From: Clostridiales bacterium
GTDB taxonomy: Bacteria > Bacillota > Clostridia > Christensenellales > UBA1242
Length of the DNA: 64,000 nt
Direction: 5' to 3'
NCBI GenBank assembly: GCA_015055815.1
Contig: SVHM01000003.1
Coordinates: 53,271-117,270 of the forward strand
Below, piece by piece: positions 2 through 33,990 of this stretch; positions within the stretch are counted from its first letter, which is position 1; the number at the start of each line of letters is the position of its first letter. The notes under the pieces were generated by a model. That model saw only the letters and a program-made list of their open reading frames with translations. It ran no database searches and had not been told where the DNA came from. A program made the position numbers and the translations under genes.

Positions 2-436
2 TTAAACTTTACAGCAGTAGATAGTGTAGGTAAGAAGACCAAATTTGTAGAATATGCTAAAAATCAATTAAATTTAGATAATTTTAATGTGATTAATAGC
101 AGAATAGAAGATTTAGCTTTTAAATCAGAATATAGAGAAAAGTATGATATAGTTGTATCAAGAGCGGTAGCAAGTCTACCAACTATCATAGAATATTCCG
201 CACCATTTCTAAAAAATAATGGAACTATTATATGTTACAAGGGAATTAATTACCTAGACGAAATAAAACTGTCTGACAATGCACTTAAACAACTTAATTG
301 TAAAATAGTTGATATTAAAGAATATTACATTGAAGAAATAAACCAAAAGAGATATTTTATAATAATTAAGAAATTTGAAACAATTTCAAACAAATATCCA
401 CGTAAACAAAACAAACCACGATTACAACCATTATAA
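2..436 (+). CDS. rsmG: 16S rRNA m7G527 methyltransferase RsmG/GidB, 5'-truncated by the window edge
   Basis: Frame is open from position 2 (LNFTAVDSVGKKTKFVE...). Contains VVSRAVA, YKG and C-terminal KYPR motifs and lies directly upstream of parA. Confidence 0.93.
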   Translation, partial: LNFTAVDSVGKKTKFVEYAKNQLNLDNFNVINSRIEDLAFKSEYREKYDIVVSRAVASLPTIIEYSAPFLKNNGTIICYKGINYLDEIKLSDNALKQLNCKIVDIKEYYIEEINQKRYFIIIKKFETISNKYPRKQNKPRLQPL

Positions 437-495: not shown

Positions 496-1257
496 ATGGG
501 TAAAATTATAGCATTTTTAAATCAAAAAGGTGGAGTTGGTAAAACGACTACATGTGTAAACATGGCAGGTTATTTGGCAAGTTTCGGTAAAAAAGTACTA
601 CTAATTGATATGGATCCACAAGGTAATGCATCTAGTCATGTAGGAATTGATAAAGAAGAAAATCACAAAACTATATATGATGTGATAGTTGATGATAATA
701 CAATTGAAGAAATAATACTTCCTACAAAATTAGAAAACTTATCAGTTATTCCATCAAATGTAGACCTAGCTGGTGCAGAAATTGAACTTGTTCAAATGAA
801 TAATAGAGAAAAGGTACTTAGAAATATATTAAAGAAAATCAAAGATAATTATGACTTTATATGTATTGACTGTCCACCATCACTTGGACTTATAACTGTT
901 AATAGTTTAACAGCATGTGATAGTGTTCTTATACCAATTCAATGTCACTATTTTGCATTAGAAGGTCTTACTCAACTTATGTACACCATTAAACTAGTTA
1001 AAAAACACCTAAACGAAAATATTGATGTAGAAGGTGTAGTCCTTACTATGAAAGATAACAGAAGCAATCTTGACCAATCAGTTTCTGAAGATATTAATAA
1101 TTACTTTAAAGAAAAAGTGTATAAAACAATAATACCTAGAAATGTTCGACTTGCAGAAGCTCCAAGTTTTGGTGAGCCAATTGTTATGTATGATGCAAAA
1201 TGTACAGGCGCAATAGCATACAAAGCATTAACTGAAGAATTTTTAAAAAGACAATAA
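496..1257 (+). CDS. parA: ParA/Soj chromosome partitioning ATPase
   Basis: Deviant Walker A KGGVGKTT, IDMDPQGNAS, IDCPPSLG and IPRNVRLAEAPSFG motifs; RBS AAGGGG. Confidence 0.97.
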   Translation: MGKIIAFLNQKGGVGKTTTCVNMAGYLASFGKKVLLIDMDPQGNASSHVGIDKEENHKTIYDVIVDDNTIEEIILPTKLENLSVIPSNVDLAGAEIELVQMNNREKVLRNILKKIKDNYDFICIDCPPSLGLITVNSLTACDSVLIPIQCHYFALEGLTQLMYTIKLVKKHLNENIDVEGVVLTMKDNRSNLDQSVSEDINNYFKEKVYKTIIPRNVRLAEAPSFGEPIVMYDAKCTGAIAYKALTEEFLKRQ

Positions 1258-1506: not shown

Positions 1507-2430
1507 ATGGCTACAAATAAAGGTTTAGGAAGGGGGCTTGGCTCATTACTTGGAATACTTGATGATGATAATGATATAAAGCCTATAAAGAAAGAAAGTG
1601 TTAAAAAAGAAAGTGCACAAGTAAAAAAGGAAGTAATAGTTCCAGAAGGTGAAACAGTTGTTGAAGTTGAGATATCACAAATTGATAATAACCCAAAGCA
1701 ACCACGAAAGATGTTTGACCCTACACTTCTTAATGAACTTGCTCAAAGTATCAAAATTTATGGCGTAATTCAGCCAATTTTGTTAACTAAAAAGGGTGAT
1801 AGATATCTAATAGTTGCGGGTGAAAGAAGATTTAGAGCAAGTATTATTGCAGGTAAAAAGACAATTCCTGCTATTATTAAAGATTTTGATGATAGAGAAA
1901 TAAAAGAAATTGCCCTACTTGAAAATATTCAAAGGCAAGATTTAAATCCTATTGAAACTGCACGTGCTATGAAAGAACTTATGGATGCATATGGATGGAC
2001 ACAAGAAACTTTGTCAGACAGACTTGGTAAAAGTAGGCCTAGTATAGCCAATAATTTAAGACTTTTGTCCCTTTGTCCCGCTGTTATTGATTTAGTTGAA
2101 AAAGGTAAACTTTCTGCAGGACATGCTAGAAGTTTAGTAGTTGTTACAAACCCAGAAGTACAACTAAAACTTGCAGAAAAAGTAATGAACCAAAAGTTAA
2201 CTGTAAGAGATATGGAAAGTGCTGTTAAAGATATAGACAATTCAGCTAAAAAGACAGTTAAAACAAAACCTACTCTTTCTATGGAAATGCAAGAATTTAA
2301 AAATAACTTAGAAAGAACATTCTCTACTAAAATCGACATTAAAGGTAATGATAAAAAAGGTAAAATTATAATTAATTACTATAATCAAGATGATTTAGAT
2401 AGAATTTATGAACTTATCGAAAGAATGTAA
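1507..2430 (+). CDS. parB: ParB/Spo0J partitioning protein
   Basis: N-terminal KGLGRGLGSLL, NPKQPRK, IVAGERRFRA and ENIQRQDLNPIE motifs; HTH region GKSRPSIANNLRLL. Confidence 0.97.
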   Translation: MATNKGLGRGLGSLLGILDDDNDIKPIKKESVKKESAQVKKEVIVPEGETVVEVEISQIDNNPKQPRKMFDPTLLNELAQSIKIYGVIQPILLTKKGDRYLIVAGERRFRASIIAGKKTIPAIIKDFDDREIKEIALLENIQRQDLNPIETARAMKELMDAYGWTQETLSDRLGKSRPSIANNLRLLSLCPAVIDLVEKGKLSAGHARSLVVVTNPEVQLKLAEKVMNQKLTVRDMESAVKDIDNSAKKTVKTKPTLSMEMQEFKNNLERTFSTKIDIKGNDKKGKIIINYYNQDDLDRIYELIERM

Positions 2431-2532: not shown

Positions 2533-3627
2533 ATGAAAATAACCAAATTAAATCTTAGAAATTATAGAAATTACGAAAATGAAAGTATTTCATTTTCAGA
2601 TAATCTCAATGTAATAATTGGAAAAAATGCACAAGGAAAGACAAATCTTCTTGAGGCAATTTTTCTTTCTGCTATTGGAAAAAGTCCTAGAACAACAAAA
2701 GACAAAGATTTAATTAATTGGAAGAAAGAATTTGCTAAAATTTCAATTTCAACAACTAAAAAAATAGGCAGTCATGATATAGACATATATTTATTCCATA
2801 ACCAAAACAAAGCTATTAAAATAGACAAAATACCAATAAAAAAAATTAGCCAATTACTTGGTACACTTAATGCTATATATTTTTCACCTGATGAACTTAA
2901 ACTTATTAAAGAAAGCCCAGAAGAAAGGCGAAAATTCATGGATATTGACTTATGTCAATTTGATAAAAACTATTATTACAATTTAAGTAATTATAATAAA
3001 ACATTAAATCAAAGAAATAAACTTCTTAAAAGTGAAAATCCGTCTGTTATTAGAGAAACATTGCCTATTTGGGATATTGAACTTGCTAAATCGGGGTCAA
3101 AAATTATTATGTCAAGGCTTCAATTAATTGAAAAATTGAAAATTTTTGCTAAAGACATACATTTTAACCTAACCAATAACCAAGAAGAATTAAAACTGTC
3201 TTATCAAGGTATAACTGGAAAAAATACCAAAGAAATTGAGAAAATTTTAATTTCAAAGTTATCAGAAAACATTGAAAAAGATATAAAATTAGGCTTTACA
3301 ACTGTTGGACCACATAGAGACGATATAAAAATATCTTCTAACGATATTGATTTAAGGTCTTTTGGAAGCCAAGGGCAACAAAGAACAGCTTCACTTTCAT
3401 TAAAATTAGCCGAACTTTCTGTATTCAAAGAAAATTTAGGCGAATACCCTATTTTGTTACTTGACGACGTTCTTAGCGAACTTGATGAAAATAGGCAAAA
3501 TAAATTATTATCTTTTGTTTCAAATATTCAAACAATTATTACTTGTACAGATTTTAACTTTTCTATACCCCATACAAAATACTACATTAATAACGGTAAA
3601 CTTGAAAAAGTTGAAAAATTTTCTTAA
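2533..3627 (+). CDS. recF: DNA replication/repair protein RecF
   Basis: NYRNY, Walker A GKNAQGKTN, GPHRDD, signature GSQGQQRT and Walker B LLLDDVLSELD. Confidence 0.97.
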   Translation: MKITKLNLRNYRNYENESISFSDNLNVIIGKNAQGKTNLLEAIFLSAIGKSPRTTKDKDLINWKKEFAKISISTTKKIGSHDIDIYLFHNQNKAIKIDKIPIKKISQLLGTLNAIYFSPDELKLIKESPEERRKFMDIDLCQFDKNYYYNLSNYNKTLNQRNKLLKSENPSVIRETLPIWDIELAKSGSKIIMSRLQLIEKLKIFAKDIHFNLTNNQEELKLSYQGITGKNTKEIEKILISKLSENIEKDIKLGFTTVGPHRDDIKISSNDIDLRSFGSQGQQRTASLSLKLAELSVFKENLGEYPILLLDDVLSELDENRQNKLLSFVSNIQTIITCTDFNFSIPHTKYYINNGKLEKVEKFS

Positions 3628-3908
3628 AAAAATTTTATTTTCAAATTTTCAGAAACAATTTAACATTTTTAATAATTAACCTTTTATAAAAAACGACTAT
3701 ATATAAACCTTTTTTAATAATCACTTTAAAATTAAAAAGTATTATAACAATATAACAAAAAACAAATTTTATTAAAATATATTATTATTATTTTATATCA
3801 AAAATTTCAAAAATTACTACTTTTTTGTTATAGAAAAATAACTAAAAAGTGGTAAATTTTGTATAATTTTGTGTAAATGTGAAAAAGACTGTCAAATATT
3901 ACACACAC

Positions 3909-4060
3909 TTATCAACATATACTTTATTCACATTTTAAAAACACATATACACAAAATGGTGCTTTTTTGTATGTGGAAATGTTGATAACTAGGTTGTCCA
4001 CATTTTCACACCCCTAATAATAACAATAATAACTAAAAAAGAAATAAATATATATTGATA
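3909..4060. other. Putative replication origin (oriC) unwinding region: DnaA-box cluster, short C-run, DnaA-trio-like repeats and AT-rich tract
   Basis: Near-consensus boxes TTATCAACA 3909-3917, TTATTCACA 3924-3932, ATATACACA 3945-3953, TGTGGAAAT 3972-3980, TGTTGATAA 3980-3988, TTGTCCACA 3994-4002 and ATTTTCACA 4002-4010. These are followed by CCC, then CTA-ATA-ATA-ACA-ATA-ATA (4014-4031) and an AT-rich stretch. The site is surrounded by parAB, recF and dnaN. Confidence 0.8.
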
Positions 4061-4085
4061 GGTGCTTCCGCACCATTTTTTTTTT
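4061..4085 (+). terminator. Intrinsic terminator-like hairpin immediately after the oriC AT tract
   Basis: GGTGC-TTCC-GCACC followed by a long T run. Confidence 0.5.
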
Positions 4086-4322
4086 ATTTTCACTTAAAGA
4101 ATATTTTCCCACCTACTTGAAATGTGCCATTACTTATGATAAACTTATTAAACAATTACTTTCTATTTAAGATATTTATTATATAATATAATCATTATAC
4201 CTACTTAATTATTAGAATTCCCTTAGTACACAATATTATTTAGAATGTGAATTAAATAGAGTAACTTTGTTAGTAGTTTTATAAACAATACTTAAATAAA
4301 AAAAATTTTTAGGTGGAGAAAA

Positions 4323-6236
4323 ATGATAGTAAACGGAAATTATGAGTTTTTTAATTTTCATAAACATAAAGACAAATTTATTGAAGCGTTTGTTCAGTTT
4401 TATGGTGAAGAGTATAGAGAAATAATAACTTATAGAATTAATGAAATTAACTATCACCCATTTCATTCTGAAGAATATGTATCTTATAAATATCAAGAAT
4501 ATTTGAAAACTTTTAAAGATGAAATAAATAAAAGACTTTTAGAAAAATATGGACTTCCTAAAAATGGCGTTAGGGAAAATATAATTCTTAGTGACAAATA
4601 TAAAGATATGTGGATATGTCTACTTGGTGGGCAGTTTTTTGAAAGTGTTGATATCAATGAAGAAGAGAAGCAAAAAATTAGAGATGTAAGAAAACTAATA
4701 ACTGATGAGTTTAATTTATCCACCGAAAGTGAAACTTCTAATTTTTTGGATATTTTGAAGTTCAGAAAAAACTATGTCGATATTGTAAGGGATATTGAAA
4801 AAGAATATAGTTGTGAAGTTTTTAGAGATATTGATTATTATGATAAATATTATCCATTTGTAATTAAATTTGTAGAAAGAAAAAGTAAAGAAGCGGGTTA
4901 TCTTGGTGAAATTATAAACAGTGATACTATAAACCCTATTGAAAAGATGAGTGAGAAAATTTTATTTGGTGGTGATATTACTGTTCCTGGACTTATTTCT
5001 GCTTTTACTACTCATAGTAATGAAATTGTTGATTACAGAGAAGATAAAAATGCAGATAGACTTTTTATAATTTGTCAAAGGCTTGAGTATTTAAGTTTAA
5101 TTGGGGTAGAGCTTAAGTATATTGATAAAGATTATATTTATGATATTTCAACAGAAGAAGATGTTGATAGAATTTTAAAGGAATATGAATATCAAGTATA
5201 TAACTACAATATCCCAGAAAAATTCGATTATAGTAAGAACTTTAAAAATTACAAGAAAAATTATAAGTATGGTGAATTTATCCCAACTAAACTTGCTGAT
5301 GAAATTGAAAATATTAGAATAAACGAACTTGCTGAATTTTATTGCAAACCTAGATTTTCGGGAAGTTTAAGAAAGGATGAATGGTTTAAAAAAATTAAAG
5401 ATGACGAAAAAAATGGTATTACTCTTGAGTTTTTTTCAAATACATTCTTTAGAAATAATAAAATTTACGATTTAAGAAGAAACATTTTTATAAACGAAGA
5501 CCCTAATTATAGCATGGAAGATTTTATAAGAAATTTAATTCATGAGATAAATCATTGTGTGTCTTTCCAATTTAAAGAGAATATAGAAGAAGTTAGAATT
5601 AGAGAAGGTCTTGACGAGTGTTATTTTAAAATAAATAATAACCTAAATGTAGGAAGATATTGTGAATATACAAATGATGCTTTGTGTTTAGCTGAAGAAA
5701 CTGTAAACGAACTTCAAGCGAGTGAAATTTATGATATATTTATTTCATTATTCCCCGACTTTATTATTCCTAATTATGAAGACAACGATAATAAATCTTA
5801 TTGCAATTATACTAATTATAATTTTATTTTGGAAGATTTTTATAATTTATATAAAGATGATATTTTAAGAGCAAAAGTTGATATTGATTATAACCTATAT
5901 CGTTCACACGACTTAACTTGTGGAATGGTTAGTAGTTATATAAATTATTTCAAACATAAAATAAAAAATAAAATAAAACCTGATGGTGTAATTGATTTTT
6001 TCAAGTTTTGTGAACTTGCCAATCTTACAATTGAATTTAAACAAGAAGTTTGTCCATACCTTGATGAATTATTCACTCCCGACTTACTATCTGACGAAAA
6101 GTTTTTAAATTCAATACCTGCAGATGTTCTTGATAAGATATTTGATATCATAAGAAGAAAAAGTAAGATTATGGAACAATTGATAAGAGAATGCCCACCA
6201 AAAATAAGTTATCAATTTGAAGATGAAATGAATTAA
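4323..6236 (+). CDS. Hypothetical 637-aa protein with a zincin-type HExxH motif (putative metallopeptidase)
   Basis: RBS AGGTGGAG. LIHEINHCV at 5535-5561 and downstream LAEETVNELQA as a candidate third ligand. No signal peptide or AAA+ motifs. Confidence 0.6.
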   Translation: MIVNGNYEFFNFHKHKDKFIEAFVQFYGEEYREIITYRINEINYHPFHSEEYVSYKYQEYLKTFKDEINKRLLEKYGLPKNGVRENIILSDKYKDMWICLLGGQFFESVDINEEEKQKIRDVRKLITDEFNLSTESETSNFLDILKFRKNYVDIVRDIEKEYSCEVFRDIDYYDKYYPFVIKFVERKSKEAGYLGEIINSDTINPIEKMSEKILFGGDITVPGLISAFTTHSNEIVDYREDKNADRLFIICQRLEYLSLIGVELKYIDKDYIYDISTEEDVDRILKEYEYQVYNYNIPEKFDYSKNFKNYKKNYKYGEFIPTKLADEIENIRINELAEFYCKPRFSGSLRKDEWFKKIKDDEKNGITLEFFSNTFFRNNKIYDLRRNIFINEDPNYSMEDFIRNLIHEINHCVSFQFKENIEEVRIREGLDECYFKINNNLNVGRYCEYTNDALCLAEETVNELQASEIYDIFISLFPDFIIPNYEDNDNKSYCNYTNYNFILEDFYNLYKDDILRAKVDIDYNLYRSHDLTCGMVSSYINYFKHKIKNKIKPDGVIDFFKFCELANLTIEFKQEVCPYLDELFTPDLLSDEKFLNSIPADVLDKIFDIIRRKSKIMEQLIRECPPKISYQFEDEMN

Positions 6237-6451
6237 TTTTATAGAATACTTTAAAGTAAGTAATATAAAAACATAAATATTTAAATATTTTTTTAAAAAA
6301 TCAATTTTTAATGTTGTTAAAAGTAAATATATATGTTAAAATAATTATGGTATATAGTAATTAAATTAATATTATATAGGTTTTTTGAAAAAATATTTTT
6401 TTTAAGATTTTTAAACTTATATAATTTTAAAATACATTTTTTGGAGAAATT

Positions 6452-7555
6452 ATGAAGATTATTTGTGATGGTGCTGATTTATCTGATGCAGTTTTAAAAG
6501 TTAGCAAAGGTACTAGTAATAAAACTACCAATCCAATTTTAGAAGGAATTAAAGTTGTTGCTGAAGAAGATTATGTAACACTTTCTGCTACCGACTTAGA
6601 ACTTTCAATTGAAAAGACAATTAAGGGTATGGTTCAAATTGAAGGTGAAATGGTTGTTCCTGGAAAGTTCTTTTGTGAATATATTAAAAAATTAAATAAT
6701 GAACAAATTGAACTTCACTGTGATGAAAAGAATATGCTTTCTATTAAGTACACCGATAGTGTTGGTAAAATTCAATGTCTTAACGCACAAGAATTTCCAG
6801 AGATAAAGAAATTTGAAGACAGTCCATATTTTGAGATGAAGAGCAAAGATTTGAAGTCTTTGATTGCAAAGTCTATTTATGCAGTAGCTGTTGAAGATGT
6901 TAGACCAATTTTAAAAGGTGTTAAACTTGAAATTACAAACGAGAAAGTTACAGCAGTAGCACTTGATGGTTATAGACTTGCTGTTGTAAAAAAGCCAGTA
7001 CATAAAACTACCGCTGAGTTTAGTTGTATAGTTCCTGCTAGGTCTTTAAACGAAATATCTAAACTTTTAGATGATAGTGATAATATTATTACAGTATTTG
7101 TTGGAAGAAACTTCCTTATGGTTGATATTGATAATACAAAAATTACAACAAGACTTTTAGAGGGTGATTTTATAAACTATACTCAAATCATACCAAGTGA
7201 CTTCACAACAAACGTTGTACTTAATAAAGACCAATTACTTGATGCACTAGAAAGAGCAAGTTTGCTATCTAGGGTAGATAGAAACAATCTTGTTAAATTT
7301 GAAATAGCCGACAAAGTTATGGTGCTTTCTAGCAAAAGTGAAATTGGTGATATTAAAGAAAATATTACAATTTCTCTTTCGGGTAATGATTTATCAATAG
7401 CATTTAACGCTAGATATTTTACAGAAGCATTAAGAGTTTTAAATGATGAATTTTTGAAACTTCAATTTACTTCAAGTGTTTCACCTTGTATTATTACAAG
7501 CAACGATACAGATGAGTTTTTATTCTTAATTTTACCAGTTAGAATTATGGCTTAG
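6452..7555 (+). CDS. dnaN: DNA polymerase III beta clamp
   Basis: NPILEGIK, ATDLEL, VALDGYRLA, RLLEGDFINY, IAFNARY and C-terminal LILPVR motifs; 367 aa. Confidence 0.98.
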   Translation: MKIICDGADLSDAVLKVSKGTSNKTTNPILEGIKVVAEEDYVTLSATDLELSIEKTIKGMVQIEGEMVVPGKFFCEYIKKLNNEQIELHCDEKNMLSIKYTDSVGKIQCLNAQEFPEIKKFEDSPYFEMKSKDLKSLIAKSIYAVAVEDVRPILKGVKLEITNEKVTAVALDGYRLAVVKKPVHKTTAEFSCIVPARSLNEISKLLDDSDNIITVFVGRNFLMVDIDNTKITTRLLEGDFINYTQIIPSDFTTNVVLNKDQLLDALERASLLSRVDRNNLVKFEIADKVMVLSSKSEIGDIKENITISLSGNDLSIAFNARYFTEALRVLNDEFLKLQFTSSVSPCIITSNDTDEFLFLILPVRIMA

Positions 7556-13731: not shown

Positions 13732-13831
13732 ATTTGTACAAAAATCATACAAATTTATTTGTGATTATAAATATTTTATGTTAATCTAAAAGTAACAAAA
13801 TGGTGGATAAAAAAATGGGGTTTAATATATT

Positions 13832-14377
13832 ATGGGTAAGAAATTTAATAAAATATGTGCTATAGTATTTTTTCCTATAGCATTTTTTGTATACTTAATT
13901 AAAGTAATTATAAAGGTAGTAAAAAAGGCTTTACTTAGGAAATATTTAAAAAATATAAGTGTAAATAAAATAGATAGCCTTGATGGAAAATCGTTTGAAG
14001 ATTTTTTGTATTACTTTTTCTTGAGTTTAAATTTAAAAGTAAAAAAGACATCACTTACACGTGATTATGGTGCCGATTTAATAATAGATTACAATGGTGA
14101 AAAAATAGTTATTCAGTGTAAAAATTATTATAATCATAAAGTCGGTAATTCGGCAATACAAGAAATTGCCACCGCTAAAGATTATTATAATGCTACGATT
14201 GGTATAGTGATAACTAATTGGTTTTTTACAAGTCCTGCACAAACCTTAGCGGGTAAAGTTGGCGTAAAATTAATTGATAGAAATATCCTGTCTCAAATTT
14301 TACATTCACCAAATACTATAAAAAACGATTATTTTGTAAATTTTATCGATAGTAATAAATTCGTTCAAACTATATAA
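13832..14377 (+). CDS. Membrane-anchored Mrr-type (Mrr_cat) restriction endonuclease domain protein
   Basis: N-terminal hydrophobic helix, then LDGKSFEDF, DYGADL, IQCKNY, VGNSAIQE and VITNWFFT. Confidence 0.8.
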   Translation: MGKKFNKICAIVFFPIAFFVYLIKVIIKVVKKALLRKYLKNISVNKIDSLDGKSFEDFLYYFFLSLNLKVKKTSLTRDYGADLIIDYNGEKIVIQCKNYYNHKVGNSAIQEIATAKDYYNATIGIVITNWFFTSPAQTLAGKVGVKLIDRNILSQILHSPNTIKNDYFVNFIDSNKFVQTI

Positions 14378-14467
14378 TTATGCTAATTATATCAATAACC
14401 AAAATTCAAAAAAAAGACACTTTTTTAAAAAATTAAAAGTGCCTTTCGTTTTTATTTATAATTATTT

Positions 14468-16093
14468 TTACTGATTAATCGTTGGTTTTTTAAGATTAGC
14501 TACTGCACCATTTACAAGTCCAACAAATAGTGGATGTGGTCTATATGGACGAGATTTAAATTCTGGGTGGAATTGGCTTGCTACAAAGAATGGATGGTCT
14601 TTGTATTCAATTATTTCTACCAAATTTTTATCACTATTTACACCCGACACAACCATACCCAAATCTTCGAATTTCTCTCTATATTCATTATTAAATTCGT
14701 ATCTATGTCTATGTCTTTCAATAATTTCTGGTTGTCCATATATTCTTCTAGCTAGTGTGCCATCTTTTAGGTTACATTTGTAATCACCAAGTCTCATTGC
14801 TTTTTCAAAGTTATTCCATTTGTTTTCTTCCATTTTGTTAATAACTGGGTTTTTCGTTTTTACATTAAATTCAGTACTTGTTGCGTCTTTTAATTTGGCT
14901 ACATTTCTAGCAAATTCAATTACAGATAGTTGCATACCTAGACAAATTCCAAGGAATGGAATTTTATTTTCTCTAGCATAATTAACTGCCAAAATCATTC
15001 CTTCAATTCCTTTATCTCCAAAGCCACCAGGAACGACAATTGCATCAAATGGTTTCAAGATATCTTTAACTCCGTACATCTCAATATCTTCACTAGATAC
15101 AAGAGTTATTTTTGCTTTATGTTTACTATTAAAACAAGCGTGTCTTAACCCTTCAGTTATAGAAAGATAAGAATATTGGTTTTCGGTATATTTACCAACA
15201 ATTGCAATATTTATAGCTGGCAAATCTTCATCCATACCATTTATCATTTCTTTCCATTTATTCAAGTTTAACGCATTACATGGCAAACTTAATTTTCCAA
15301 TTGCAATTCTATCTAAGCCTTCTTCTGCTAAATTTAGTGGTACTTCATAAATATTATTTGCATCTTTATTTTGAATAACAAAGTCTGAACTTTTCAAATT
15401 ACAAAACATTGCGATTTTTCTTTTTATATGGTCGCTCAAAGTAATATCTTTATTCGTTCTGCAAACTATTACATCTGGTTGAAGTCCGTATGAATTTAAA
15501 CATCTAACACTTGTTTGAGTAGGTTTAGTTTTTAATTCTTCTGTACTTTCCATGTATGGAACTAAAGTACAATGAATATGGATATAATTATCTTCAGTTA
15601 GTTCGTTTTGGAATTGTCTAACTGCTTCAAGATAAATAGCGTTATCCATATCTCCAACCGTTCCGCCAATCTCAATAATAACAACATCAGCGCTATCATC
15701 ATACGATTTCATACGTCTTTTGATTTCACTAGTCATATGTGGGACTTGTTGAATTGACATTCCTGTATTTTCATCATGCTTAGTATCGTTATTTATAAGC
15801 ATATCTGCAAGAATTTTTCCAGTAGTTAGATAATTATTTTTATCACTCTCAATATCTAGAAATCTCTCAATATATCCTAGTGCTAATGCACTTTCAACTC
15901 CATCATGAGAAACAAACACTTCGCCATACTGAATAGGGTTAATAAGACCTAAGTCAAAATTAAGTCTAGGGTCAAATCTTTGGAAATTAACTTTAATACC
16001 CCTTTCTATAAGTATTCTACCAAGTGCAACACCAGTAATGCCTTTACCTAAATTAGAAACAACACCACCAGTTATAAAAATATACTTACTCAT
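14468..16093 (-). CDS. CTP synthase-like protein with an intact glutaminase domain but a degenerate synthetase active site
   Basis: Likely start MSKYIFITGGVVS at 16093 (RBS GGAGA). EIGGTVGD, KTKPTQ, GICLGMQ and QFHPEF are present, but the canonical ETDLDLGHYERF reads ESALALGYIERF and the canonical QHGE reads QYGE. Confidence 0.85.
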   Translation of the reverse strand: MSKYIFITGGVVSNLGKGITGVALGRILIERGIKVNFQRFDPRLNFDLGLINPIQYGEVFVSHDGVESALALGYIERFLDIESDKNNYLTTGKILADMLINNDTKHDENTGMSIQQVPHMTSEIKRRMKSYDDSADVVIIEIGGTVGDMDNAIYLEAVRQFQNELTEDNYIHIHCTLVPYMESTEELKTKPTQTSVRCLNSYGLQPDVIVCRTNKDITLSDHIKRKIAMFCNLKSSDFVIQNKDANNIYEVPLNLAEEGLDRIAIGKLSLPCNALNLNKWKEMINGMDEDLPAINIAIVGKYTENQYSYLSITEGLRHACFNSKHKAKITLVSSEDIEMYGVKDILKPFDAIVVPGGFGDKGIEGMILAVNYARENKIPFLGICLGMQLSVIEFARNVAKLKDATSTEFNVKTKNPVINKMEENKWNNFEKAMRLGDYKCNLKDGTLARRIYGQPEIIERHRHRYEFNNEYREKFEDLGMVVSGVNSDKNLVEIIEYKDHPFFVASQFHPEFKSRPYRPHPLFVGLVNGAVANLKKPTINQ

Positions 16094-16278
16094 TTTCCAT
16101 TCTCCATTTTTTCTCTTATACAAATTTTACAAAATATTTAACTATTCGTCAAATAATTTAACATAAAACTCAAATATTATATATACTAAACTTAAATATA
16201 TTTTGTGTAAAATATATATAAATTATATTTTCTGTTTTTAACGTTTTGATTTAAAAATATTTGTTAAAATTTTTAAAG

Positions 16279-16289
16279 TGTGTTAAAAT
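16279..16289 (+). promoter_or_regulatory. Extended -10 element (TGTGTTAAAAT)
   Basis: The identical 11-mer precedes four genes (16279, 19189, 22923, 42571) and fits TGn-TAAAAT. Confidence 0.5.
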
Positions 16290-16324
16290 ATACTAACTTA
16301 ATGTAATTTAAAGGGTAAAATAAA

Positions 16325-17401
16325 ATGGATAAGTATAGTATTTTAAGAGATTTAATTCAGTTTAATACAGCATTTGATGCTCAAAACCAAGCAATAATGG
16401 AGTATATAGATAAGTACCTAACCGACAAAGGTTTTAGGACTAATTATTGTATCGACGACGATACTCAGAAGAAATGTCTTGTAGCTACTGCAGGTGTAAA
16501 TCCTGTACTTGGTTTTGTTTGCCATACAGATACATCACCACTTGGTGCTAACTGGTCAGACTATGACGCTATGGATTTAACTCTTGATGGAGATAAACTT
16601 ATAGGTCTTGGTATTTCTGAAATGAAAGGTGGTATGGCTGCCGTTCTTTCTGCAGTTGGTAACTTCGATTGGAAACTACCTAAAAAAGGTTTGAAACTTT
16701 TCTTCACATTCGACGAAGAAAATAACTTCACTGGTATCAAAACTATTGTTGCAAAAGAAAAAGAAATTCCACAAAACATAATAATTCCTACACCAACTAG
16801 TTTGTATCCAGTTGTTGCAACCAAAGGACTACTTAAACTTTGTGTAATGATTTCTGGAAAACCAGCACATAGTAGCAACCCAACAAAAGGTAGTAATGCA
16901 ATAGAGCATGCAGTATCATTCTTAGGTGAAGTTTATTCATTCAATAATAGATTGAAAGAAGACAAAAATAATGCTTTTGAACTTCCATATACAACATTTA
17001 ACTTAGGTAAAATTCAAGGCGGTTCATCACTTAACAGTGTTCCTGGTGAGTGTTCAACTTACTTAGAATATCGTACAATTAGACCCGACCACAATCGTCA
17101 AATTATTGAGAAAATCAACGACCTTGCTTCTAAATACAATGGTTTTGTAACCGTTATAGATGATGTTCCACCAATGTCAACATTTGCAGAAAACTTCATC
17201 TCTCGTCTAGAAGAATTAACAGGTAACAAACGTTCATCAATAGCTGTAGTTTCTGATGGTAACTACTTAGGTGAAAATGCCGTAGTACTTCTAGGTCCCG
17301 GACCAATCACAAGTGGTGAGAAAAATGAGTTTATAAGCAAGTTTAGTTATGAGACTTTGATAGAGCTTTATACCAAACTCCTAAAAGAAACCTGTTTTTA
17401 G
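16325..17401 (+). CDS. M20 family (ArgE/DapE-like) metallo-deacylase homologue with altered metal ligands
   Basis: CHTD, GISEMKGG, TFDEE, KGL..L.V...GKPAHSS.P.KG.NAIE and FNLGKIQGG.S.NSVP motifs. The canonical GEP reads PTP and the C-terminal AH is absent (GPGPITSGEKNE). Confidence 0.8.
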   Translation: MDKYSILRDLIQFNTAFDAQNQAIMEYIDKYLTDKGFRTNYCIDDDTQKKCLVATAGVNPVLGFVCHTDTSPLGANWSDYDAMDLTLDGDKLIGLGISEMKGGMAAVLSAVGNFDWKLPKKGLKLFFTFDEENNFTGIKTIVAKEKEIPQNIIIPTPTSLYPVVATKGLLKLCVMISGKPAHSSNPTKGSNAIEHAVSFLGEVYSFNNRLKEDKNNAFELPYTTFNLGKIQGGSSLNSVPGECSTYLEYRTIRPDHNRQIIEKINDLASKYNGFVTVIDDVPPMSTFAENFISRLEELTGNKRSSIAVVSDGNYLGENAVVLLGPGPITSGEKNEFISKFSYETLIELYTKLLKETCF

Positions 17402-17412
17402 GAAATATAAAC

Positions 17413-17782
17413 TTCGTAATAGTGCAGAAAATTCAAAAACGAGAAGCCAGTCATTTATGTTATATAAACTCCTGGCTCTCTTTTTTTATTTTCTTTCTCT
17501 TACTCGTTTCTATTTCCTAAAAAAACATGCAATCAAGTGAGTTGTTTTATTCACTCGGTCATTTATGTCATATAAACTCCCGTCATAAATATAATCATTT
17601 TTTTTGAATTACTCGTTTCTATTTCCTAAAAAAATTTTGATATTATAGGTTTTAGGTGTTTGGATTCGTATTAGTGCAGAAAATTCAAAAACGAGAAGCC
17701 AGTCATTTATGTCATATAAACTCATGTCGTAAATATTATTCTTTTTTTGACCTACTTGTCACTATTTCCTAAAAACATGCAA
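17413..17782. repeat. Degenerate three-unit intergenic repeat array including a 59-bp direct repeat
   Basis: 17413-17471 vs 17665-17723 differ at 2 positions. Core GTCATTTATGT(C/T)ATATAAACTC at 17450, 17558 and 17702. Second motif TACT(C/T)GT..CTATTTCCTAAAAA at 17501, 17610 and 17753. Confidence 0.85.
17441..17490 (+). terminator. Probable terminator of the M20 gene, formed within the first repeat unit
   Basis: GAGAAGCCAG ... CTGGCTCTC followed by TTTTTTTATT. Confidence 0.45.
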
Positions 17783-17824
17783 ATATATGTAATCTATTTT
17801 ATTTAACATTATTAAGTTATCAGG

Positions 17825-18298
17825 TTATTCTGCTAAATTAATAAAATTTTTCTTTAACTTTTTAGCATAATTCATTGTTTTATTTGCTCCGCTATTTTCG
17901 GTATTCTTAACGTAAAAAATTATCTTATCACTATTTTTTATCATCTCTACATTTCTATAATATATTCGTTTATTAAAGCCATTATATTGAAGTGGAAAAA
18001 ATACAAATTCTTCAAATTCTTCATCTAACAAATATTTTGGGCGTTTAAGTCTATTTAAATGTTTTTCTTCAGTTAATACGAATACTCTTCTAATATAAGG
18101 GTATTCTTTTTTTACGTCTGTCACAATCTCCCATGCAAGCTCATCAAACTTTCCAAAACCACCAAACAAAAATACACCAAAATTCTCTTGTGTAATTAAC
18201 TTTATTATTAAATTTTTCAAATCTTCTTTCAATTTATCGGTTATTTCTAATTCGCTATGACCAAAGAAAGATAAAGTACTTGTTAACGATGTATTCAC
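17825..18298 (-). CDS. SLOG superfamily (YpsA/DUF1273-like) nucleotide-binding protein
   Basis: SFFGHS, FGGFGKFD, RNVEMIKNSD.IIFY and SGANKTMNYAKK..K.FINL motifs. GTG start, apparently leaderless. Confidence 0.75.
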   Translation of the reverse strand: MNTSLTSTLSFFGHSELEITDKLKEDLKNLIIKLITQENFGVFLFGGFGKFDELAWEIVTDVKKEYPYIRRVFVLTEEKHLNRLKRPKYLLDEEFEEFVFFPLQYNGFNKRIYYRNVEMIKNSDKIIFYVKNTENSGANKTMNYAKKLKKNFINLAE

Positions 18299-18391
18299 AA
18301 TCTAATAATAGTATGTTTCTTAAAAGTTGTCAATGCATTCACAACATAAAATAATAACAATTGATAAAATTTATGTGAATACATTGACAAC
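18282..18391. promoter_or_regulatory. Divergent promoter/operator region with three copies of an operator-like motif
   Basis: 18-bp inverted repeat GTTGTCAATGCATTCACA (18326-18343) / TGTGAATACATTGACAAC (18374-18391) with 1 mismatch, plus a third partial copy at 18282-18300. Minus-strand TTGACA (18333-18328), 17 nt, TATTAT (18310-18305). Confidence 0.7.
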
Positions 18392-18410
18392 TTTATGGAG
18401 ATTAATAATT

Positions 18411-18668
18411 ATGAAATTACACGAAGCGGTTGGGAAAAGAATACTTGAATATTGTAAAGAAAGGAATATAACGCCTAATAAATTGTGTACAATGTCAGGT
18501 GTAATACAATCTACGGTAAATAGTATATTTTCTGGTAGAAGTAAAAATCCAAAACTTGCAACTATTCAATATTTATGTGCTGGACTTAATATTACTATTA
18601 AAGAATTTTTCGATAGTCCATTGTTTATAAAGGTAAAACATGAATTTAAACAAAGCAATTGTGTATAG
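18411..18668 (+). CDS. XRE-family HTH regulator 1
   Basis: RBS GGAG before ATG 18411. Pattern AVGKRILE.C.E.NIT...L...SGV..STV.SI..G.SKNPK..TI..LC.GL.ITI.EFF. Confidence 0.85.
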   Translation: MKLHEAVGKRILEYCKERNITPNKLCTMSGVIQSTVNSIFSGRSKNPKLATIQYLCAGLNITIKEFFDSPLFIKVKHEFKQSNCV

Positions 18669-18894
18669 ACTATTAAAATTATTATCAGAAAAAGTAATGA
18701 CAATATATCGTTATGAGAAAGAAAGTGGAATAAGTCATTCGGCATCAAATTATATATTTAATGAAACAAATAAAGATGTAAAATTTTCAACTATTGTAAA
18801 AGTTTGCTATATTTTAAGAATTAGTCTAGAAGAATTTTTTAGTGATAGTATTTTTGATATAAATAAATTAGATTTTGAATTGGTGAAATTATGA
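18640..18894 (+). CDS. XRE-family HTH regulator 2 (divergent paralogue)
   Basis: Same pattern (AIVYRL...ESGIS.S...IF...K..KFSTI.K.C..L.ISLEEFF); overlaps regulator 1. Confidence 0.75.
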   Translation: MNLNKAIVYRLLKLLSEKVMTIYRYEKESGISHSASNYIFNETNKDVKFSTIVKVCYILRISLEEFFSDSIFDINKLDFELVKL

Positions 18895-19133
18895 CATTAG
18901 ATGAAGCAGTAAGAACAAGGATATTAGAAATTATTGAAGAGAAAAATATTACTCTTACGGCATTATGTTTAAATTCAAATTTAACTCCATCAACTATTTT
19001 TGATTTTATGTATAATAAAAGCAAAAGTCCTAAAATTATTACGATCAAAAAATTGTGTGTAGGTGCTGGAATAACTTTAGAACAATTTTTTGCAAGAGAT
19101 TATTTCAACAGTGATGAAGAAATATTTAACTAA
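18891..19133 (+). CDS. XRE-family HTH regulator 3
   Basis: AVRTRILEI..EKNIT...L...S.LTPSTI...KSKSPKIITIKKLC.G.GITLEQFF; ATGA overlap with regulator 2. Confidence 0.85.
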   Translation: MTLDEAVRTRILEIIEEKNITLTALCLNSNLTPSTIFDFMYNKSKSPKIITIKKLCVGAGITLEQFFARDYFNSDEEIFN

Positions 19134-19296
19134 TTTCTCAAACTTTTTTATAAATTTATACAACTTAAATTTGTTTTTTATATTCAATTGTGTTAAAATA
19201 AACATATATGTAATGAAATTATAATATATTATATAGATATATTTGATTTTTTTGGAGTTCTTTTGAAACTTCTTTTCGAAATTTATAGGAGAAAAA

Positions 19297-20805
19297 ATGT
19301 TTAAAATATTCACTTCGTCAAAGCTTAAATTATTCCTATTGCTTATTATAAATGTGGCAGTAGCTTTTTTGATGTCATTTTTTAATTTGCTTTATGTATA
19401 TTTTGCTTCATGTTTATTTTTGGCTATATTGTCTATTTTCTTTATCGCTAATAGACCTGAAAGAGACGCATACAAAGTTATGGTATTTTTGCTTATCATA
19501 ATGCTTCCACTTTATGGTATAGGTTTTGCTTTTACGAACAAAGAAAACAAAGGCACCAAGAAAATTAAAAAAGAATGGTCAGATATTGTTTATAGAAATA
19601 GAAAAACAGTATTCCAAAGTAATGAAACAATGGATTTACTTAAAAATACCGACAGTGAAGTTTACAAAACTTGTAGTTATATTGTAGATAGTATTGGTAT
19701 GCCATGTTTCCAGAATGCAAAAGTTAAATATTTTTCTTTCGGTGAAGCATATTTCAAAGATTTGTTTGATGAATGTAAAAAAGCACAAAAATTCATTTTG
19801 TTTCAATGTCATAAGGTAGTGCCGGGTAATATTTGGACACAGTTATTTGATACTCTTAGATTTAAAGCTAGAGAAGGTGTAACTGTTAAATTTATTTACG
19901 ACCATGAAGTTTGTACAAAGTTTATCTCAAATGATGACTTTATGAAAATGAGAAATCATGGAATTGAAACTATTCCTTTTAATACATTAAAAAGTTCTGA
20001 TGCAACTTTCTTAAATTGTAGAAATTATAAACGTCTTTGTGTAATTGATGGAAAAGTTGGTTTCTTTGGTGGTTTTGATGTAAATGATGAATTTGTTGAA
20101 AGTTCAGAACTTACAAACGCAACTAAAGATTGTGCAGTTAAAATTATGGGCGAAAGTGTTAAAAATTTAACAGTAATGTTCTTTGAAGATTACCAATTCG
20201 CAACAAAGAAAGTAATTAATTTACAAGATTACTTTGCAGACAACGAAAGTTCAAAAACTAAAGATTGGATACTTCCATATTCTACAAACCCAGTATCGAC
20301 AGAGCATACGAACAAAAATATTTTACTTAGTCTTATTAATAATTCCAGAGATAATATTACAATTACAACATCATATTTAGGAATTGATGATGAACTAAGA
20401 AATGCACTTATTGTTAACGCAAAATCGGGTGTGAAAGTAAGGCTTATTTTCTCTGGTGAGAAAGTTAAGAAAAAATACAAAAACCTTGCAAGGTCGTACT
20501 TTTATGAACTTATAAAAGGTGGCGTAGAAGTATATGAATATAAGGGTGGTAAAATGACAACCAAACTTATTATCATAGACAACAACTTATGCTTGCTTTC
20601 AACTAATAACTTAGACTGTTCATATACATATAGACACTTTAATGGTGGCGTGATAGTCTATGGAGAGTCAGCAATCCTTATGTATAACGATATGCGAGAA
20701 ATTATCAATAATTCTCAAATACTTACTATCAAAGATTTGCAAAAGAGAAAGTTAGGCGAAAAAATTAGTTCAACATGGACTAAGTTTATGGAGATATTTA
20801 AATAA
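19297..20805 (+). CDS. Cardiolipin synthase-like protein with both HKD motifs lacking the catalytic His
   Basis: Two N-terminal TM helices plus a PLDc_N-like segment and YFSFGEAYF. Motif 1 reads RNYKRLCVIDG (canonical RNHRK...D) and motif 2 reads MTTKLIIID (canonical HxK...D). Confidence 0.85.
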   Translation: MFKIFTSSKLKLFLLLIINVAVAFLMSFFNLLYVYFASCLFLAILSIFFIANRPERDAYKVMVFLLIIMLPLYGIGFAFTNKENKGTKKIKKEWSDIVYRNRKTVFQSNETMDLLKNTDSEVYKTCSYIVDSIGMPCFQNAKVKYFSFGEAYFKDLFDECKKAQKFILFQCHKVVPGNIWTQLFDTLRFKAREGVTVKFIYDHEVCTKFISNDDFMKMRNHGIETIPFNTLKSSDATFLNCRNYKRLCVIDGKVGFFGGFDVNDEFVESSELTNATKDCAVKIMGESVKNLTVMFFEDYQFATKKVINLQDYFADNESSKTKDWILPYSTNPVSTEHTNKNILLSLINNSRDNITITTSYLGIDDELRNALIVNAKSGVKVRLIFSGEKVKKKYKNLARSYFYELIKGGVEVYEYKGGKMTTKLIIIDNNLCLLSTNNLDCSYTYRHFNGGVIVYGESAILMYNDMREIINNSQILTIKDLQKRKLGEKISSTWTKFMEIFK

Positions 20806-20934
20806 AAGTGTTACAAAAAAGTAACACTTTTTTTAAATTATATTTACATTAAATATGAAATAATTGTAATTTTATTAAAATTGTGTTAGAGTATAAATAG
20901 AGAGAAAACTCTTTTTAAAAAAGTGGGGTAAAAT

Positions 20935-21978: not shown

Positions 21979-22397
21979 TTATAGATGATATTAAAAAAGC
22001 AAATATTGAAGCAATGAAAAATAAGGATAGCAAGGCAAGAGCAATATATAGTGTACTTATGAATAAATACTTGCTTGCTCAAGTAGAAAGTAGAACTACT
22101 GGAAAAGAAGTAGAAGATGCAGATATGGTGAGAATTATCCAAAAGACAATTAAAGAACTAGAAGAAGAAAGAGATAATTACGCAAAAGTAGGAAATACTG
22201 AAGAAGTAGAGACTATTGAATATGAAAAGTCTTTACTTGAAAAATACCTACCACAAATGCTATCTGCTGAAGAAATAAAAGCAATAATTGAAACAATTGA
22301 AGACAAAACAGTGCCAAGCGTAATGAGACATTTTAAAACAAATTACAATGGTAAAGTTGACATGAAAACCGTTTCAGAAGTATTAAAGAATATGTAA
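21975..22397 (+). CDS. yqeY: GatB/YqeY domain protein
   Basis: IKKANIEAMKNKD, YAKVG...E, LEKYLPQMLS.EEI and VDMK.VSEVLK; ATGA overlap with the previous gene. Confidence 0.9.
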   Translation: MIIDDIKKANIEAMKNKDSKARAIYSVLMNKYLLAQVESRTTGKEVEDADMVRIIQKTIKELEEERDNYAKVGNTEEVETIEYEKSLLEKYLPQMLSAEEIKAIIETIEDKTVPSVMRHFKTNYNGKVDMKTVSEVLKNM

Positions 22398-29449: not shown

Positions 29450-31420
<1,971 letters not shown>

Positions 31421-31431
31421 GGGGGTAAATT

Positions 31432-33990
31432 ATGGAAAGAGATGAAATTGAAAAGCTTATAGATAAATTAGATAATAGCAAAGTCCTTGACGTAAAAGTT
31501 AAAGAAGAACTAGAGAAATCATTTATAGCATATGCAATGGCGGTTAACGTTAGCCGTGCTATTCCTGATGTAAGAGACGGTTTAAAACCCGTTCATAGAA
31601 GAATTATTTATGCAATGGGTAATAACTTAGGACTTTATAATGATAAACCTTTTAGAAAATGTGCGACTATTGTCGGTGAAGTAATGGGTAAATTTCACCC
31701 ACATGGTGATAGTGCGATATATGATGCACTTGTAAGACTTGCACAAGACTTTACAATTAATTGCCCATTGGTTGATGGACATGGAAACTTTGGTTCGGTT
31801 GATGGAGACCCACCAGCTGCTGCCCGTTACACAGAAGCAAGACTTAGCAAAATCGCTAGTGAAATGCTTAATGGAATAAATCAAGAAACTGTTGATTTCT
31901 ATCCGAACTTTGATGGACGTGAAATGCAACCAACAGTTCTTCCAAGTAGGTTTCCAAACCTTCTTGTAAACGGTAGTGACGGAATTGCTGTAGGTATGGC
32001 TACAAACGTTCCACCACACAACTTATGCGAAGTTATTTCAGCCGTTATTGCTTTAATTGATAACCCTGAAATTACAATCCCTGAACTTATGGAATATGTA
32101 CCAGCACCCGATTTCCCAACAAAAGGTCTGGTTATAGGTGGCAAGGGTATCAAAGATATGTACGAAACGGGTAAAGGCTCATTTATAATTAGAGCAAAAA
32201 CCGAAATAGAAGAAGAAAATGACAAACAGAAGATAGTTATCACAGAAATCCCATATCAAGTAAATAAAGCTAAACTTATTATCCAAATTGCTGATATGGT
32301 TAAATCAAAGAGAATTGAAGGCATATCTGATATCAAAGAAGAAAGTGATAGAGAAGGAATGCGTATAGTTATTGATGTCAAGAGAGACGCAAATGCTCAA
32401 GTTGTACTTAATAACTTATTTAAACATACACAACTTCAAATATCATTCGGTGCTATTAACTTAGCACTTGTAAATGGAACTCCAAAAATTCTTAACTTAA
32501 AAGAAATTTTGGTACACTACCTAAATTTCCAAAAAGAAGTAATTATAAGAAGAACAAAATTTGAACTTGATAAAGCTGAAGCAAAAGAACATATTTTGAA
32601 AGGTTTGGTAATTGCTCAAGCAAATATAGATGAAGTAATTAGACAAATTAAACTTTCAAATGATAAACAAGACGCAATTGAAAGACTTACAAGATTATTC
32701 GAATTGGACGAAAAACAAGCATCTGCTATTCTTGATATGAGACTTCAAAAATTAACAGGTCTTGAAGTTGAAAAATTAAAAGCAGAACTTGAAGATATCC
32801 AAGCATTAATCAAAGGCTACAAAGAAATTTTAGCATCAGAACTAAGAGTATTAGAAATTATCAAAGGCGACCTTATTGAAATTAAAACCAAATACGGTGT
32901 ACCTAGAAAAACTGAAATTTCATTTGATTATACAAGCCTTGATATTGGTGACCTTATTCCTAGACAAACAGTTGTACTTTCACTTACACATTCTGGATAT
33001 ATTAAGAGAATGCCAGTTGGTGAGTATAAGAGCCAACATAGGGGCGGTATGGGTGTTGTTGGACATAAGACAAAAGATGAAGACTTTGTAGAAAATATCT
33101 ACGTTACATCATCACATGACGACCTATTATGCTTCTCAACTAAAGGTAGAGTGTATACAATCAAAGCATATGAAGTGCCAGAAGCTCAAAAACAAGCAAA
33201 AGGCAGGGCGATGGTAAATCTTCTTCAAGTAGATAAAGAAGAGAGAATTACCGCTATTATTCCGCTTAACGGAAGTGAAGAAGGCAATCTAATGATGGCA
33301 ACTAAAGATGGTCTTATCAAGAAAACACCAATTAGTGAATTCTCTTCAATTAGAAAGGGCGGAAAAATTGCTATTAAACTTAATGATGGTGATGAACTTG
33401 TTGGAGTATATCTAACTACTGGCAATGACGAAGTATTAATTGCAAGTAGCGAAGGTAAATGTATTAGATTTAACGAAAACACTGTAAGAAAATTAGGCAG
33501 AGACACAATGGGCGTTAAGTCTATGAAGCTAAACGAAGGTGAATATATAGTTGATATGACTATAATAAAACCAAATAGCGATATGCTTACTATTTCTGAG
33601 TTTGGCTATGGTAAAAGGTCAAATGAAAGCGAATATAGACTACAAGGAAGAAATGGTAAAGGTATAAAGGCTGGTGTGTTCAATGAACAAACAGGAAATC
33701 TTGTAAACTTAAAACAAGTATGTGATGATGACGATATTATGCTTATAGCAGATGATGGTGTTGTTATTAGAGTTTCGGCAGGTGAGATTAGTAAAATTGG
33801 CAGAAACACAAAAGGTGTGAGAATAATGAAAATGAAAGAAGGTAGCAAGATTGTGTGTGTTGCCGTTACTAAGTCTGACAAATCTCAAGACGAGCTAGCT
33901 GAAAGTTTGGAAGAAACAGAAGTTGAAAATATTGAAAATATGGTAGAAGCTCAAGCTGTTGAAAATATTGAAAACACAGAACTGATTTAA
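31432..33990 (+). CDS. gyrA: DNA gyrase subunit A
   Basis: [25 protein letters not shown] (catalytic Tyr), GyrA-box QHRGGMG and C-terminal beta-pinwheel repeats. Confidence 0.98.

Follow-up and report, generated by a model that had tools for sequence, protein, structure and literature searches.

Where does replication begin in a bacterial chromosome whose initiator gene, dnaA, does not sit beside dnaN? The question is raised by a 64,000-nucleotide stretch (hereafter, the window) of contig SVHM01000003.1 of Clostridiales bacterium assembly GCA_015055815.1, which covers positions 53271-117270 of that contig (C4:53271-117270). The source assembly, labeled G000, comprises 1.31 Mb in 15 contigs and is 98% complete, and its host genus consists of uncultured Christensenellales with small genomes (1.1-1.4 Mb, approximately 30% GC) known from human, ruminant, and other gut metagenomes. 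Very probably, dnaA has been relocated in this lineage while the working origin is a module of DnaA boxes and DnaA-trios beside dnaN, the outcome of repeated rearrangement of the origin region in one clade. Positions given without a contig name refer to the window.

Gene identities were assigned from Pfam and NCBIfam profile matches. On the + strand of the window, rsmG, parA, parB, and recF are followed by a 695-bp spacer that holds a cluster of DnaA boxes, then by an open reading frame (ORF) of 637 amino acids (hyp637), dnaN, genes for two ATP-binding cassette (abc) exporters, and tyrS; gyrB and gyrA start 21.9 kb past dnaN. These assignments agree with a preliminary description of the window made from its sequence, which had read the order as rsmG-parA-parB-recF-boxes-hypothetical-dnaN, all on the + strand, had placed gyrBA about 22 kb further on, and had noted the absence of DnaA. 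No ORF in the 64-kb window is DnaA-like, and a joint match to PF00308 and PF08299 occurs only outside it. The layout thus departs from the canonical Bacillota cluster (rpmH-rnpA / dnaA-dnaN-recF-gyrB-gyrA) in that dnaA is not directly upstream of dnaN, in that recF precedes the module and gyrBA is remote from dnaN instead of both following it directly, and in that rsmG-parAB-recF face the module rather than reading away from the origin.

The genome-wide search for DnaA that the preliminary description had suggested returned one complete gene, located at C4:31236-32573 on the minus strand, and this is the only place in the whole assembly where PF00308 and PF08299 match together. The gene encodes 445 amino acids without internal stops, and its product contains DnaA_N (PF11638, 29 bits), AAA+ (PF00308, 217 bits), and DnaA_C (PF08299, 95 bits) domains with normal Walker A/B and DNA-binding signatures. 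Approximately 25 kb separate it from the box cluster, which is to its right, and 27 kb from dnaN (C4:59722-60825, + strand), from which it diverges; pgi is upstream of it, and a small helix-turn-helix (HTH) gene and metG are downstream. The genes rpmH-rnpA-yidD-yidC-jag are found on the minus strand another 19 kb to the left. Since one intact dnaA is present on the same contig, dnaA has been relocated. Of the two fates that had been proposed for it, relocation or loss, the second is ruled out. A weaker PF00308 match on contig C1 looks like a helicase loader of the DnaI/DnaC type, judging by eye from its zinc-binding Cys motif and Walker A sequence. Inspection of the 130-bp spacer that precedes the relocated dnaA showed no DnaA boxes, and no box cluster equivalent to the dnaA-upstream half of an origin (incA/B) was seen adjoining the gene. 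There is a perfect DnaA box inside the 5' end of dnaA (C4:32492-32500, 73 nt into the ORF), where it is encoded by conserved L-W-I-K codons, and a similarly placed perfect box, 64 nt in, is present in the dnaA gene of the related genome G004. In another congener, G005, two PF00308 matches with identical scores (C12:104488-104973 and C20:2372-2857) indicate either that dnaA is duplicated or that the contigs are redundant.

Given that the source is a metagenome-assembled genome (MAG) in 15 contigs, the gene order might be an artifact of assembly or binning, with a chimeric join at 3.6-6.5 kb of the window. The preliminary description had allowed for such a junction, and none was found. Two contigs that come from separate samples and were built by different assemblers (JGI 3300022654 and ENA ERZ27248457) are 100% identical over 2533-7555, the whole spacer included; an identical hyp637 protein is encoded on 23 contigs from independent assemblies, with the same neighbors in all of them; the recF-hyp637-dnaN order is repeated in other species (loci L028, L029, and L036); and dnaA is split from dnaN in at least 15 sister species. 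Misassembly is excluded by these observations, which leave an artifact with a vanishingly small probability.

The preliminary description had used the order dnaA-dnaN-yaaA-recF-gyrB-gyrA as its Bacillota baseline. That order, the B. subtilis layout, does not serve as the baseline in this genus. In G001, G003, G008, G010, G018, and MAG locus L042, the genes are co-directional in the order recF>dnaA>dnaN>(rnpA-yidD-yidC-jag>)mnmE>mnmG>rsmG>parA>parB, and G012 has a mirrored, divergent version of this canonical order. We infer that the ancestor of the genus had the same order, with the oriC unwinding module between dnaA and dnaN. Comparison of synteny among relatives, a step to which the preliminary description had also pointed, places the window in a split sub-clade whose DnaN proteins are 82-90% identical to the one encoded here and in which dnaA is not beside dnaN; its members are G000, G004, G013, G015, and approximately 12 further MAG species. 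Where the contigs permit, dnaA of the split sub-clade is found 25-30 kb off, downstream of pgi as it is here.

The DnaA-box cluster in the recF-hyp637 spacer exceeds chance. With TTATCCACA as the consensus, boxes having no more than one mismatch number 526 in 1.31 Mb, or one per 2.5 kb, and four of them are found in 95 bp (3909-4002), as compared with an expectation of approximately 0.04. This is the second densest cluster of the assembly. The published description of the basal unwinding system (BUS) in bacterial origins calls for a DnaA box with up to two mismatches to the consensus and, optionally, a weaker tandem box downstream of it with up to four; a spacer of up to 16 bp, most often 13, between the better box and the first trio, with a short G+C stretch at its end; and at least three consecutive trios with a central adenine, 3'-GAT-5' being favored next to the box (PMC8287927, PMC6669920). 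The sequence at 3994-4035 is TTGTCCACA-TTTTCACA-CCC-(TAA TAA TAA CAA TAA TAA), with AT-rich DNA after it. Its first box has one mismatch to the consensus, and its tandem box, aTTTTCACA at 4002-4010, has three and overlaps the first by one base. The spacer is 11 nt long (4003-4013) with CC(C) at its end, and the bottom strand from 4014 reads 3'-GAT TAT TAT TGT TAT TAT-5', in which GAT comes first and five of the six trios have a central A. The trio assignment is a reading of the pattern, for which the strand was chosen by the 3'->5' direction of DnaA loading (PMC6669920). Judged by its sequence, the module fits a basal unwinding system of the B. subtilis type.

The same module is recognizable in relatives that have kept dnaA in place. 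The 17-nt tandem-box core, TTGTCCACATTTTCACA (3994-4010), occurs only twice in the assembly, and the canonical congener L042 has it between dnaA and dnaN with 17/17 positions identical. The dnaA-dnaN spacers of G012 and G008 have the core with one or two changes, followed by a 3-nt periodic A/T tract, and the tandem pair equivalent to the one described above is ATTTCCACA in G012. In the split clade, the core recurs adjoining dnaN or hyp637 in L031, L032, L033, and L040.

Past the trios, the AT-rich tract and the hairpin at 4036-4090 are probably the unwinding region, or else a terminator-like element; the hairpin and its T10 run adjoin the end of the AT-rich tract and are 430 nt past the stop codon of recF. 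In L030, a hairpin-like sequence and a T-run likewise come after the module. A small RNA in the spacer, considered on the basis of an extended -10 element near 3860 and the hairpin and T-run, has no Rfam support: a search of the interval at gathering thresholds found no RNA family.

The position of the origin can also be read from strand composition. We used the GC skew of third codon positions (GC3 skew), which, when taken on the + strand, reports fork direction irrespective of gene orientation. Genome-wide, coding-strand GC3 skew is +0.25 for leading-strand genes (n = 718) and -0.25 for lagging-strand genes (n = 212). The mean for the seven genes mnmE, GNAT, mnmG, rsmG, parA, parB, and recF (C4:47.6-56.9 kb) is about -0.24, and their pooled third-position G count (155 of 436 G+C) favors a left-arm over a right-arm model by 64 natural-log units. 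Since the composition of these genes is lagging-type, the block is transcribed head-on toward the origin, with recF as its final gene and directed at the origin. Cumulative GC3 skew on C4 is -667 after recF, -670 after hyp637, and -666 after dnaN. The resulting minimum at C4:56.9-59.7 kb (3.6-6.4 kb of the window) is the only internal minimum across the 15 contigs, so there is an orientation-independent strand switch at the site of the module; maxima, which are candidates for the terminus, are found at about 60 kb of C8 and about 50 kb of C1. In G004 and G015, the GC3 minimum is likewise at the box cluster adjoining dnaN. Orthologs of the mnmE-parB block have a strongly leading-type raw skew in the canonical genomes G008 and G012 and a raw skew near zero in all four of the split genomes (4/4). 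As a separate observation, GC3 skew is flat at approximately 13800-22000 of the window (C4:67-75 kb), unlike that of the flanking right-arm genes.

Taken together, the homology of the module to the canonical dnaA-dnaN spacer, the GC3 switch, and the relatives support the conclusion that the origin stayed beside dnaN, and the composition supports a 9.3-kb mnmE-mnmG-rsmG-parAB-recF block that is head-on to replication. The preliminary description had anticipated both points, having proposed that the origin stayed beside dnaN and that parAB-recF point toward it, and its impression by eye of a stronger G excess to the right of approximately 4 kb is borne out and put in numbers by the skew.

How the present order arose from the ancestral one is less simple. 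Comparison of loci L025-L042 shows that the few kilobases around dnaN have at least three arrangements in the split sub-clade. With BUS standing for the box-trio unwinding module and hyp for hyp637, arrangement A is recF> BUS> hyp> dnaN> abc> (this genome, L028, L029, and L036); in arrangement B, the BUS-hyp-dnaN segment is inverted between recF and abc (G013, L030, and L039); and arrangement C is recF> dnaN> BUS> <hyp abc> (G004, G015, L031, and L032). At least three local arrangements among sister species indicate that the origin is a hot spot for local rearrangement and inversion. An ancestor with pgi>dnaA>dnaN would acquire the exact present order through a single inversion of the segment recF...mnmE / malQ...pgi-dnaA if one breakpoint fell between dnaA and the module. 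No congener in the sample has this ancestral order; every one has recF>dnaA>dnaN, and the single inversion is therefore set aside as hypothetical. Probably several rearrangement steps took place.

In two other Christensenellales families with approximately 50% GC, represented by G028 (contig C3; L045-L047) and G029 (contig C92; L048), dnaA and dnaN are 10-30 kb apart and divergent. DnaA boxes are present just upstream of dnaN in both, and the skew is too noisy to place the origin. These separations suggest that unlinking of dnaA from dnaN is probably recurrent in the order.

Several observations weigh against an origin beside dnaN, or against this account of its history. The route by which the present order arose does not come down to a single inversion that has been observed. 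The window cluster has no perfect TTATCCACA box, whereas a cluster on contig C13 has four. GC3 skew is near zero in hyp637 and dnaN, so the switch is resolved only to within approximately 3 kb, and in G013 the GC3 curve has not yet turned within the stretch examined. Finally, raw cumulative GC skew is lowest at about C4:48 kb, at the point where malQ and mnmE diverge, and it stays flat to 58 kb, which makes it ambiguous alone. In the cumulative skew, which the preliminary description had proposed as a check, the GC3 minimum falls between recF and dnaN and the raw minimum falls elsewhere.

The raw minimum suggests a rival explanation in which the origin moved to the divergent malQ/mnmE spacer (C4:47318-47593, approximately 5.7 kb before the window) and the boxes on the dnaN side are a relic or a regulatory site for dnaN and hyp637. 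The mnmE...recF block would then be co-directional with replication. The switch in gene orientation coincides with the raw minimum, both being at approximately C4:47.4-48 kb, but raw GC skew bottoms at malQ/mnmE because gene orientation confounds it, and cumulative GC3 skew reaches its minimum 10 kb farther to the right. The spacer itself has no DnaA box with one mismatch or fewer. The seven genes to its right are lagging-type in AT skew as well as in GC3 skew, their pooled counts reject the right-arm model by the margin given above, and orthologs of the block are leading-type where the order is canonical. We therefore regard a move of the origin to this spacer as quite unlikely.

The perfect boxes on C13 suggest another rival, namely that the true origin is the stronger box cluster at C13:21351-21600 (L007:9351-9600). 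It is the densest cluster in the assembly, and the second of the two copies of the tandem-box core, TTATCCACATTTTCACA, is in it. Nevertheless, both GC3 and raw skew climb steadily through it without a switch, the genes on its two sides converge and it is downstream of a VanW-like gene, and neither dnaA nor dnaN nor parS has a copy nearby. Canonical congeners, like split ones, keep the cluster at this site, and its distance from dnaA and dnaN there is 80-200 kb. We consider it very unlikely that replication begins there, and a stronger box cluster coinciding with a skew minimum next to dnaA, which the preliminary description had named as grounds for abandoning its interpretation, does not exist in this case. 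Nor is the C13 cluster the dnaA-upstream half of the origin left behind when dnaA moved, since canonical congeners have the same VanW-flanking site. Our analysis suggests instead that it is probably a genus-wide, non-origin cluster that would titrate DnaA, and we liken it to the DnaA-titrating clusters DBC of B. subtilis and datA of E. coli.

For the origin beside dnaN, the following account can be proposed. An intact dnaA moved approximately 25 kb off, to the opposite strand and the other replication arm, the mnmE...parB block came to sit upstream of recF, and the hyp637 gene, which encodes an HExxH motif, came to stand between the unwinding module and dnaN. We infer that the box-trio module at approximately 3.87-4.09 kb of the window fires as the working origin. 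DnaA made from the distant gene would bind the tandem boxes, load onto the trio tract, and open the adjacent AT-rich DNA. Forks would depart both ways, and the leftward fork would meet the 9.3-kb mnmE-GNAT-mnmG-rsmG-parA-parB-recF block head-on. The coordinates of the features of the window are collected in Table 1.

Table 1. Features of the probable origin region and the gyrase genes, in window coordinates.
Feature	Position	Strand	Remarks
rsmG (gidB), 3' part	2..436	+	PF02527, E=6e-23; gene start precedes the window
parA (soj)	496..1257	+	PF13614, PF01656, ParA/MipZ families; composition lagging-type
parB (spo0J)	1507..2430	+	ParB_N, HTH_ParB, ParB_C
recF	2533..3627	+	TIGR00611, 369 bits (cut-off 172); coding-strand GC3 skew -0.27, lagging-type
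DnaA-box cluster	3871..4011	.	1-mismatch boxes flanked by more degenerate ones
1-mismatch box TTATCAACA	3909		
1-mismatch box TTATTCACA	3924		
1-mismatch box TGTTGATAA	3980	minus	
1-mismatch box TTGTCCACA	3994 (3994-4002)		
Core unwinding module (BUS-like)	3994..4035	+	tandem box TTGTCCACA/tTTTCACA, CCC spacer, TAA-repeat tract
AT-rich tract and GGTGC-TTCC-GCACC hairpin	4036..4090	+	hairpin with T10 run at 4061-4090
hyp637, 637-aa ORF	4323..6236	+	no family match
dnaN (beta clamp)	6452..7555	+	three DNA_pol3_beta domains
gyrB	29489..31420	+	
gyrA	31432..33990	+	

Nine perfect parS sites, TGTTTCACGTGAAACA, form an array between mnmG and rsmG at C4:51841-52834, 436-1429 bp before the start of the window. 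The module is 4.4-5.4 kb to their right, which adds to the evidence for an origin beside dnaN. The sites follow one another at intervals of 96-146 bp within 1.5 kb of non-coding DNA, and they are the only parS-like sites (two mismatches or fewer) in the assembly. Across the genus, arrays of 4-13 copies are found at the equivalent position (G004, G008, G012, G013, and G015).

The gene between the module and dnaN has an unusual distribution. Homologs of hyp637 are confined to the split clade. The gene is present in 18 of the 41 genomes of the genus; it is absent from all seven genomes in which dnaA and dnaN are adjacent (7/7), present in all four in which the two are split on the same contig (4/4), and adjoins dnaN in four more. 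It evolves fast, with an identity of 21-30% where DnaN is 82-90% identical. Two variations were noted: G037 has two convergent copies, and G015 has an 88-amino-acid N-terminal remnant between hyp637 and dnaN. An alignment of 15 homologs (A1) reveals an invariant HExxH motif (HEINH; H407 E408 x N410 H411) together with a downstream E459 and N462. HExxH zinc metallopeptidases are characterized by such a motif, a third metal ligand, and a recognizable metallopeptidase fold; in hyp637, the motif and the downstream E/N are invariant in the 15 homologs. Searches of the protein against Pfam, NCBIfam, PHROGs, and PDB sequences gave no match, and a homolog search with the family profile retrieved only three clusters. 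The AlphaFold2 model is fairly confident, with a mean predicted local distance difference test score (pLDDT) of 80 and a predicted template modeling score (pTM) of 0.75, and a search of the whole model against PDB folds returned nothing with an E value below 0.8. We rejected the notion that hyp637 is a diverged DnaA: Pfam, NCBIfam, and PDB comparisons give no DnaA, AAA+, or HTH signal, and the protein has the HExxH motif instead.

The co-occurrence of hyp637 with the dnaA split may be a correlation on a single branch. Since hyp637 is found only in the dnaA-split clade and always beside dnaN and the module, we can propose a tie to initiation, for example as a protease or regulator that acts on DnaA, DnaN, or another factor and whose arrival permitted or compensated for the unlinking of dnaA; we think such a tie unlikely. 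In a weaker variant, selection could act on the conserved orientation itself, in which parAB-recF face the origin head-on.

The natural comparison system is oriC of B. subtilis, where incC is located between dnaA and dnaN and the BUS consists of DnaA-boxes 6 and 7 and DnaA-trios (PMC6669920, PMC8287927). As in B. subtilis, the tandem boxes described here have the upstream box nearer the consensus and are followed by a short G+C spacer, a tract of 3-nt trios with central A, and AT-rich DNA; the module is oriented toward dnaN; and the same module is found in the dnaA-dnaN spacer of canonical congeners. Unlike in B. subtilis, the gene upstream of the module is recF instead of dnaA, hyp637 separates the module from dnaN, none of the boxes matches the consensus perfectly, and no incA/B-like cluster is seen beside the relocated dnaA. 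E. coli is the classic case of an oriC unlinked from dnaA (PMC6669920). As in E. coli, tens of kilobases lie between the origin and dnaA, and DnaA would act from a distant gene. The E. coli origin neighborhood includes mnmG and rsmG (gidA and gidB), both of which are in the origin neighborhood here as well. Unlike in E. coli, the ancestral box-trio module is kept and so is its linkage to dnaN, and the event is recent enough for congeners still to be in the ancestral state. Within the class Clostridia, the nearest origin to have been studied experimentally is reportedly that of Clostridioides difficile. That species keeps dnaA and dnaN adjacent, with oriC in that context, whereas the split clade lacks dnaA-dnaN adjacency.

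Unlinking of oriC from dnaA is thus already known from E. coli and others, and the split sub-clade is a new, well-documented Clostridia example of it, not a new kind of system; its value is comparative, not conceptual. Linkage of dnaA, dnaN, and oriC is among the most conserved gene neighborhoods of the Bacillota, and origin-finding software depends on it. For genomes such as this one, dnaA-based calling misleads and raw GC skew misplaces the origin by approximately 10 kb. The box-trio module and GC3 skew agree with one another, and it is these, not dnaA, that origin prediction should follow. The presence of ancestral and derived layouts within one genus constitutes a natural experiment. Its outcome, as far as can be read from the sequences, would be that the box-trio module does not need dnaA in cis in order to work; the half of the bipartite origin upstream of dnaA appears to have been dispensable or lost; and a 9-kb housekeeping block that includes parAB is tolerated head-on at the origin.

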